Below are positions 20,127 to 20,900 of a stretch of 64,000 bases of DNA, piece by piece. Where the stretch lies: positions 620,001 to 684,000 of the forward strand of contig CP145419.1 in assembly GCA_036867785.1 (NCBI GenBank), written 5' to 3'. The notes under the pieces are model-generated. The model saw only the letters and a program-made list of their open reading frames with translations, did no database searches and was not told the origin of the DNA. Both the position numbers and the translations under genes were made by a program. How positions within the stretch are numbered: the first letter of the stretch is position 1; each line of letters starts with the position of its first letter. Source of the DNA: Plasmodiophora brassicae. Taxonomy: Eukaryota.

Positions 20127-20900
20127 TCAGATTGGGAATTGGAACGTCGATTGTTCCCCGGGCACGATCAGGTTGCTGGTCAGCTTCATCGATCTCGGCG
20201 ACGTCTGTGGAGTGGCCGGCGCCGCCCCTGCTGATGCTGTCGTCATTGTTGTTGTTGCTGCTGCTGCTGCTGCTGTCGACGTCGCCGTCCCTTTGCCGAA
20301 CAGCAACGCCAGGACCGCGTTGTCGTGCGCTTCCGCCTTGCTGCTGACCGCATTGCTGGCGCCGTCCGACTTCGTCTTCGACAACCGGTACAGGGATTCC
20401 ATCATGGCCAGGCGCGTCCGAAGGTCGAGCTCGTTGATCAGCGTCTTCACGTGGTCGACGTGGGCGAACGGGGCGACCAGCGGGTCGTCGCCCGTCATCA
20501 GCTGCTGCTGCTTGGCGTCCAGGAAGCATTGTGTGATGTGCGCCTGCAACGGCGTCGTGATCGTCTGGCAGCAGCACGGGCACTGTCGGGCCGACGCCGA
20601 CGGTGCCTGGGTCGGGTCGGCGGTGCCCCAGTTGAGGAACCCGTCCGTCTTCATCGGCGACGACATCATCTGCAGGTGCGATGCGACGCTCTCAGCGAAC
20701 GCGGCCGAGTGTGGCAGCAGGTGGGCGCCGTCCTCGTCGTACGACCGCGCCGATGCGGGCACGGGTGCCGGCCGCGGCAGGTACCCTTCGGCGGTGCTGA
20801 CGGCGCCCCATGCGAACTCGTTCATGATGTCGCAGGGTGCGCCCCGTTCCACCTTCAATGTGCAATGCGACGCGGATCGTTTCGTACCGGGCGATATCAT
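20127..20900 (-). CDS. Protein with UBZ-like zinc finger and C-terminal LNK-like motifs (start uncertain)
   Basis: QCPCCCQTITTPLQAHITQC; ELDLRTRLAMMESLYRLSK ... HDNAVLALLFGK. Confidence 0.65.
   Translation of the reverse strand: MISPGTKRSASHCTLKVERGAPCDIMNEFAWGAVSTAEGYLPRPAPVPASARSYDEDGAHLLPHSAAFAESVASHLQMMSSPMKTDGFLNWGTADPTQAPSASARQCPCCCQTITTPLQAHITQCFLDAKQQQLMTGDDPLVAPFAHVDHVKTLINELDLRTRLAMMESLYRLSKTKSDGASNAVSSKAEAHDNAVLALLFGKGTATSTAAAAAATTTMTTASAGAAPATPQTSPRSMKLTSNLIVPGEQSTFQFPI

Follow-up and report, generated by a model that had tools for sequence, protein, structure and literature searches.

A conserved family of UBZ4-like zinc-finger proteins with two helical blocks resembling those of plant LNK co-activators

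As co-activators, the LNK proteins occupy a central place in the plant circadian oscillator and in the expression of temperature-stress genes. A published account (PMC6356500) describes LNK1-4 as lacking known domains and as having two conserved regions at the C-terminus. Through these regions, called R1 and R2, the proteins bind RVE4/8 and MYB3 and make contact with Pol II and FACT. The same account reports that LNK homologues occur throughout land plants. AlphaFold2 models of LNK-RVE pairs, as presented in another report (PMC10120023), assign the interface to two segments of the LNK partner, one about 45 residues long and the other about 21. In LNK3 these segments span residues 163-207 and 235-255, and in LNK1 they comprise a segment that starts at residue 475 (the printed range contains an error) and residues 544-564. 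Beyond land plants, a third study (PMC10853006) calls knowledge of LNKs in green algae scant and reports that BLASTP found none in a red seaweed. The literature on LNK evolution, as far as its available portions extend, yielded no description of an LNK-like family outside land plants.

Here we describe a small gene in a stretch of eukaryotic DNA of 64,000 nucleotides (hereafter ‘the window’) whose product combines a zinc finger with two short helical blocks. The original prediction regarding this locus held that these blocks resemble the conserved C-terminal blocks of plant LNK1-4, and that they are joined to a UBZ-type finger in what is either a deeply conserved LNK-like module or, in a plant parasite, a clock-mimic or HGT candidate. 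The predicted features prove to be real and are conserved in a family of proteins, and we consider the homology with LNKs to be probable but unproven, given that it rests on leads comprising the nearest neighbours in the ESM Atlas and a shared layout of two helical blocks.

An intron-free gene in a compact, gene-dense window

The window is compact and rich in genes, with a GC content of 0.51-0.69 per 2 kb and introns of about 55-75 nt. Other reading frames in the window match ordinary eukaryotic families, for example kinesin, cyclin and a ZNFX1-like helicase. The gene of interest resides in the stop-to-stop frame 20127-21140 on the minus strand, which holds, letter for letter, both of the blocks quoted in the original prediction. 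Its features are listed in Table 1.

Table 1. Features of the zinc-finger gene and its nearest neighbour, in window coordinates
Feature	Position	Strand	Description
Coding sequence	20130..20825	-	232 aa, single exon, open frame; N-terminus MNEFAWG
Stop codon of zinc-finger gene	20127-20129	-	
Possible N-terminal extension	20826..20900	-	25 codons; reading from the in-frame upstream ATG at 20900 yields database model P0002 (257 aa)
N-terminal conserved motif	20625..20705	-	AAFAESVASHLQMMSSPMKTDGFLNWG; residues 41-67; common to P0003, P0004 and P0005
CCHC zinc finger	20526..20582	-	QCPCCCQTITTPLQAHITQCF; C82-P-x-C85-x10-H96-x3-C100, UBZ4 ligand pattern
Block 1 (R1-like)	20376..20459	-	VDHVKTLINELDLRTRLAMMESLYRLSK; residues 123-150; two predicted helices
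Block 2 (R2-like)	20292..20342	-	SKAEAHDNAVLALLFGK; residues 162-178; one predicted helix
C-terminal motif	20130..20165	-	VPGEQSTFQFPI; residues 221-232; P0003 has VPGEMTTHYQFPI, P0004 has IPGEQSPASYQFSI
Tail-to-tail neighbour	19478-20044	+	Apparently three exons separated by two short GT..AG introns (about 19640-19712 and about 19848-19903; boundaries approximate)

Two in-frame ATG codons could serve as the start of the protein. We prefer the downstream codon at 20825 over the one at 20900 because the N-terminal extension of P0002 is absent from the relatives P0003 and P0004, and because P0004 (MNYPSW...) begins at the downstream position and aligns with the window protein from end to end. 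Given this agreement between the start of P0004 and the ATG at 20825, and given that the relatives align without gaps of the kind that introns would leave, we take the locus to be a small gene that lacks introns, set in a GC-rich eukaryotic genome.

By eye, no hydrophobic stretch is visible at the N-terminus (MNEFAWGAVSTAEGYLPRPAPV...) of the 232-aa protein. This agrees with the earlier statement that no signal peptide is seen, and the protein more likely has an endogenous role without being secreted, in keeping with the earlier proposal of an endogenous nuclear role. Outside the finger and the two blocks, the protein carries conserved motifs near both of its ends. The N-terminal motif (...SPMKTDGFLNWG) and the C-terminal motif (...PGE...YQFPI) both fall within the full-length alignment with P0003 and P0004, and by eye a reduced version of the N-terminal motif, with the core D-[GS]-F-L-x-[WT], can be recognized in further family members. 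The full-length AF2 model assigns low confidence to both motifs, with a pLDDT of only about 50-55 across residues 41-67 in the case of the N-terminal motif.

The gene is present in the window as a single copy. The next best tblastn match in the window has an E-value of 0.10, and a profile built from the two blocks gives 77.9 bits for the 20127-21140 frame, compared with 6.5 bits for the next best among all six-frame pieces of the window. No Myb domain was detected among the window frames of 130 aa or more, and no evening element is located near the zinc-finger gene. The window as a whole contains one evening element (1289-1296), against 0.52 expected.

Several additional characteristics of the surrounding DNA were recorded. 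The stop codon of the tail-to-tail neighbour (Table 1) is separated by 83 bp from that of the zinc-finger gene, and a Pfam search with each exon of this neighbour returned no family. Short microsatellites, (TG)n and (CA)n, lie on both sides of the zinc-finger gene, with one at about 19692-19708 in the first intron of the neighbour and another at 21195-21211, which is about 370 bp upstream of the start codon. A single frame of 2174 aa at 43249-49770 on the plus strand encodes three CCCH fingers, AAA_11/AAA_12 helicase domains and a ZNFX1 domain, with an RZ-type finger at the C-terminus, and the product looks like a ZNFX1/NFX1-like helicase. The kinesin motor domain at 9017-10085 (plus strand) and the cyclin at 51923-52899 (minus strand) are each split across two reading frames, in keeping with the presence of short introns.

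The base composition of the window is uneven, such that the region from about 24000 to 40000 has a GC content of 0.51-0.585, versus about 0.60-0.69 in both flanks. The lowest value in the window (0.51) is found at 36001-38000, where the AT skew is +0.37. A frame of 644 aa in this GC-poor part, at 35490-37421 on the plus strand, gives weak matches to RNase H and RVT_3, and the region at 34-40 kb showed no tandem repeats. This segment may be the remnant of a mobile element.

A protein family defined by a finger and two blocks

A phmmer search of 1.84 billion representative sequences recovered 33 proteins at E<=1e-3, comprising the window protein itself and 32 relatives, and all 33 of these aligned proteins bear the finger. 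Eight of the 33 have E-values of <=1e-10 and three of <=1e-30, with the best relatives of the window protein found at 1e-46 and 3e-36. Word-indexed searches returned 3 matches when the single protein was used, at least 5 with the full alignment, and at least 14 with the trimmed block alignment when longer proteins were allowed. The last of these searches added three relatives and brought the family to 36 members, including the window protein, and among the matches listed none bears a protein name. The closest relatives, P0003 and P0004, are likewise unnamed environmental or transcriptome proteins, with 50% and 43% identity to the window protein (BLASTP). Identity to the window protein across the family alignment (A1) ranges from 19 to 54%.

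The CPxC-x10-H-x3-C finger and both quoted blocks are present in the coding sequence as had been predicted, and the originally proposed span of 20290-20583 opens at the first cysteine of the finger (codon 20582-20580) and closes where block 2 ends, at about 20292. Following the finger, the protein continues with ...HVKTLINELDLRTRLAMMESLYRLSK... and then with ...HDNAVLALLFGK. The order of finger, block 1 (LDLRxRIxxMESLYRLS) and block 2 (D..VLxLLY) is maintained in all 36 members. Seven residues (C82, P83, C85, H96, C100, R138 and R147) are invariant, both in the alignment of 33 proteins and in that of 36, and three more (L135, S144 and L148) show conservation of 90% or higher in the 33-sequence alignment. 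In block 2, positions D46 and L53 (numbered according to alignment A2) are conserved at the level of 90% or more.

This pattern of conservation was not reflected in the existing domain collections. The window frame matches no Pfam family at E<=10, and when the 33 members were searched, the most common family matched just three of them, with a best E-value for any family of 0.035. On the strength of these searches we regard the family as conserved, rare and outside every annotated family. A PDB sequence search with the single protein returned TonB at E-values of 0.63-0.88 for residues 56-125 of the stop-to-stop frame (P0001), and this match is attributed to chance because most of the matching stretch is located upstream of the preferred start codon.

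Some family members carry additional motifs that were noted by eye. One subgroup (P0008, P0013-P0016, P0019, P0023, P0027 and P0032) exhibits an acidic N-terminal motif of the form D/E-W-S-N-I...D and a C-terminal KRK...VQALSFSP...R tail, and both are absent from the window protein. The tail is a candidate nuclear localisation signal. A second subgroup (P0018, P0022, P0029 and P0033) shares the C-terminal end MVRKIISxIEPSY.

Structural models were generated with AF2 for the full-length protein, using the family alignment, and for a core construct spanning residues 75-180. The full-length model has a mean pLDDT of 65.9 and a pTM of 0.41 and is confident only for about residues 78-178, with the remainder of the protein predicted to be disordered. 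The core model has a mean pLDDT of 81.9 and a pTM of 0.49, and is composed of two strands and a helix followed by three further helices. Two of these three helices fall in block 1 (residues 119-131 and 135-150, pLDDT 86-92) and one in block 2 (residues 162-176, pLDDT 81-91). When the models were compared with the PDB by using Foldseek at E<=0.001, none of 60 matches for the full model and none of 42 for the core model qualified. A sequence profile of blocks 1 and 2 had CFAP97 as its sole PDB match, and this was discounted given its E-value of 1.

In the 32 of 36 members matched by both regular expressions, block 1 lies 26-38 residues past the finger, and block 2 is positioned 16-56 residues past block 1 in the 31 members matched. 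The tight spacing between the finger and block 1 suggests that they form a single module, although the pTM values of 0.41-0.49 mean that the AF2 models do not establish how the helices pack onto the finger.

Comparison with UBZ4 fingers and LNK proteins

The finger resembles the UBZ4 fingers of RAD18, WRNIP1 and FAAP20 in several respects. It conforms to the arrangement C-x2-C-x10-15-H-x3-C, with a proline after the first cysteine and a hydrophobic residue after the last. A regular expression for the finger matches 34 of the 36 members, with spacers of 10-14 residues, and in the remaining two (P0026 and P0034) the spacer is longer and the finger is identified by alignment. AF2 places strands at residues 80-81 and 88-89, followed by a helix at residues 93-110, all with a pLDDT of about 90, and the predicted fold is therefore of the beta-beta-alpha type, with the strand-strand-helix order of UBZ4 fingers. 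When the family profile was searched against PDB sequences, the top matches were the UBZ fingers of WRNIP1 (E-values of 0.022 and 0.31), FAAP20 (0.095 and 0.14) and RAD18 (0.1 and 0.51). Fingers of the UBZ4 type account for six of the seven best matches, all at weak E-values of 0.022-0.51.

There are also differences. AF2 predicts a long finger helix of 18 residues that runs on into further helices, and no Pfam UBZ model matches the family. In the UBZ4 fingers of WRNIP1 and RAD18, an aspartate located two positions after the histidine (H+2) makes contact with ubiquitin. None of the 34 fingers read has aspartate at this position and only one of the 34 has glutamate, with serine, threonine, lysine, methionine and others in its place. 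In the alignment, the aspartate is present in the WRNIP1 and RAD18 rows and absent from the FAAP20 row. The lack of this residue weakens the case for ubiquitin binding by the finger, which we consider doubtful, even though FAAP20 also does without it. The earlier assignment of a UBZ finger is therefore sustained with respect to the ligand pattern and, at weak E-values, the best PDB matches, and carries no implication of ubiquitin recognition, which the missing aspartate disfavours. Judged by its sequence, ‘UBZ4-like CCHC finger’ is a fair name, with ubiquitin binding treated as putative.

A lead toward the proposed relationship with LNK proteins comes from the ESM Atlas. The three nearest neighbours of the window protein are an unnamed Streptophyta cluster (score 0.89, 195 of 256 features shared), the cluster ‘Protein LNK3’ (0.87, 191/256) and a second unnamed cluster (0.86, 181/256). 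For P0006, a family member that is 38% identical to the window protein, they are the unnamed Streptophyta cluster (0.91, 205/256), ‘Protein LNK3’ (0.89, 197/256) and ‘LNK2 isoform X1’ (0.86, 182/256). According to the calibration of the tool, scores under 0.9 are leads only, and the values of 0.86-0.91 obtained here fall mostly below that level. Furthermore, the two queries are homologous and hence are not independent. The unnamed Streptophyta cluster has 369 members and a representative of 244 aa, which is close in size to the proteins of the window family. Block 1 of the window protein agrees by eye at 11 of 18 positions with the putative LNK R1 block as quoted in the original prediction, a six-letter piece of which matched no paper in a full-text search of the literature. 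The phmmer search, at the threshold and database size given above, placed no named LNK among its 33 proteins. The originally suggested relationship is consequently retained as a lead, which comes from the two LNK-named Atlas clusters.

The similarities between the two groups of proteins are otherwise those of organization. Both are small or mostly disordered and lack annotated domains, and both carry two short conserved helical blocks toward the C-terminus in the same order, R1 followed by R2, as far as the available LNK descriptions show. In LNKs, the excerpts consulted identify these blocks as the surface that binds RVE/LCL and MYB3 (PMC6356500, PMC10120023), and by analogy the same role in the window family is putative. 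The two groups also differ. The CCHC finger that precedes block 1 in the window family is not mentioned in the LNK descriptions consulted, and the gap between the helices of the two blocks is about 11 residues here versus about 27 in LNK3, as calculated from the published segments available. Finally, LNK homologues are described as occurring across land plants (PMC6356500), whereas the genome represented by the window is compact, GC-rich and equipped with short introns, and does not look like that of a land plant. Weighing these observations, we lean toward the view that blocks 1 and 2 are homologous to R1 and R2 of LNKs. If this homology holds, we infer that the family constitutes an LNK-like lineage outside land plants that bears a zinc finger.

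A possible docking adaptor and its alternatives

The explanation that we favour overall is that the gene encodes a small adaptor built around a zinc-stabilised, LNK-like docking module, and our confidence in this explanation as a whole is evenly divided. The gene product would be a small, soluble and largely disordered regulatory adaptor whose sole folded part, at about residues 78-178, forms one module. In this module, the helix of the UBZ4-type finger would run into the three further helices that carry both conserved blocks. Docking would occur through the R1/R2-like helices, which would engage a helical domain in a DNA-binding partner (in plants, the LCL domain of RVE/Myb factors), and the invariant R138 and R147 would be located on the docking surface. 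Other factors might then be recruited by the disordered N- and C-terminal motifs, leaving the docking helices to the DNA-binding partner. As for the finger, it could lend stability to these helices or else bind a second ligand, for which ubiquitin is a candidate that the residue pattern disfavours. That the window protein works in the manner of LNKs, with docking by the blocks, recruitment by the terminal motifs and a finger that stabilises the module or binds a second ligand, is an argument by analogy, and one that we advance tentatively and with a slight leaning against it.

We are somewhat more sceptical about a broader evolutionary proposal, which can nevertheless be stated simply. The R1/R2 docking module could be older than land plants, with ancestral helices built on a CCHC (UBZ4-like) finger. 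The protist family would have kept this ancestral form, and plant LNKs would have either lost the finger or retained a degenerate version that is hidden from view.

A different possibility is that the family is unrelated to LNKs and is instead a UBZ4-type, lineage-restricted adaptor that acts in the DNA-damage response or in ubiquitin signalling, much like the small proteins FAAP20 and Spartan, which have one finger each. The blocks would then be an oligomerisation or partner motif that is particular to this family, and their resemblance to LNKs would reflect convergence of short amphipathic helices. It is true that the only alignment-based likeness to anything characterised is that of the finger to WRNIP1, FAAP20 and RAD18, that no LNK was reached by phmmer or is present among the profile-search matches listed, and that the Atlas scores stand at the level of leads. 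These points are countered by the weakness of the UBZ matches themselves (E-values of 0.022-0.5) and by the missing H+2 aspartate in 34 of 34 fingers. In addition, the blocks are as conserved as the finger, with R138 and R147 invariant, and clusters named as LNKs are among the three nearest Atlas neighbours of two members, where 181-205 of 256 features are shared. We consider this explanation rather unlikely.

Alternatively, the finger and the helices may together form one new zinc-stabilised helical domain, whose ligand is neither ubiquitin nor a Myb factor and could for example be a nucleic acid or a chromatin protein. The UBZ and LNK labels would then be distant echoes. Such a domain would be compatible with the short distance of 26-38 residues between the finger and block 1, with the single confident stretch formed by residues 78-178 in the AF2 models, and with the absence of a PDB fold match or of a Pfam family common to the 33 members. 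However, a pTM of just 0.41-0.49 is too low to establish that the helices pack against the finger, and the Atlas neighbours point to LNKs. Accordingly, we regard this arrangement as improbable.

The original prediction also raised the prospect of horizontal transfer or of a clock mimic. In that case the gene would have been recently acquired from a plant, or would encode a secreted mimic of a host LNK with which a plant parasite tampers with the host clock. Apart from the suggestion itself, only a resemblance to a plant family speaks for this proposal, and several observations conflict with it. The 36 members are deeply diverged (19-54% identity) and all have the finger, which the available portions of the LNK descriptions omit. 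The nearest relatives are unnamed proteins with 43-50% identity, no plant LNK is close enough for phmmer to find, and no signal peptide was seen by eye. Moreover, the GC content of the gene (0.64) fits that of the neighbouring 2-kb blocks (0.62-0.64). We therefore set this suggestion aside as very improbable.

The chance that the frame is merely a spurious one, of which this GC-rich window has many long examples on both strands, is negligible, since it has relatives with E-values as low as 1e-46 and 3e-36 and is conserved over its full length including both termini, whereas the overlapping frames on the opposite strand lack such support.

Several consequences would follow from the docking-adaptor explanation that we favour, and some would follow regardless of its fate. 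If the link with LNKs fails, the locus still reveals an unannotated eukaryotic family of 36 members with seven invariant residues, whose only likeness to Pfam or PDB entries is its UBZ-like finger. If the link holds, then the family displays a new finger-bearing architecture, or else a finger has been overlooked in LNKs, which is possible because Pfam misses the finger of the window family as well. Should the module be as ancient as proposed, it would provide the first structural and evolutionary anchor for the otherwise domain-less LNKs, and partners of the Myb/LCL type would be predicted to exist in non-plant lineages. A conserved family outside land plants that has both blocks and a finger would date the module to an earlier time, would supply structural studies with a compact construct that can fold and is about 100 residues long, and would hint at the original role of the blocks.
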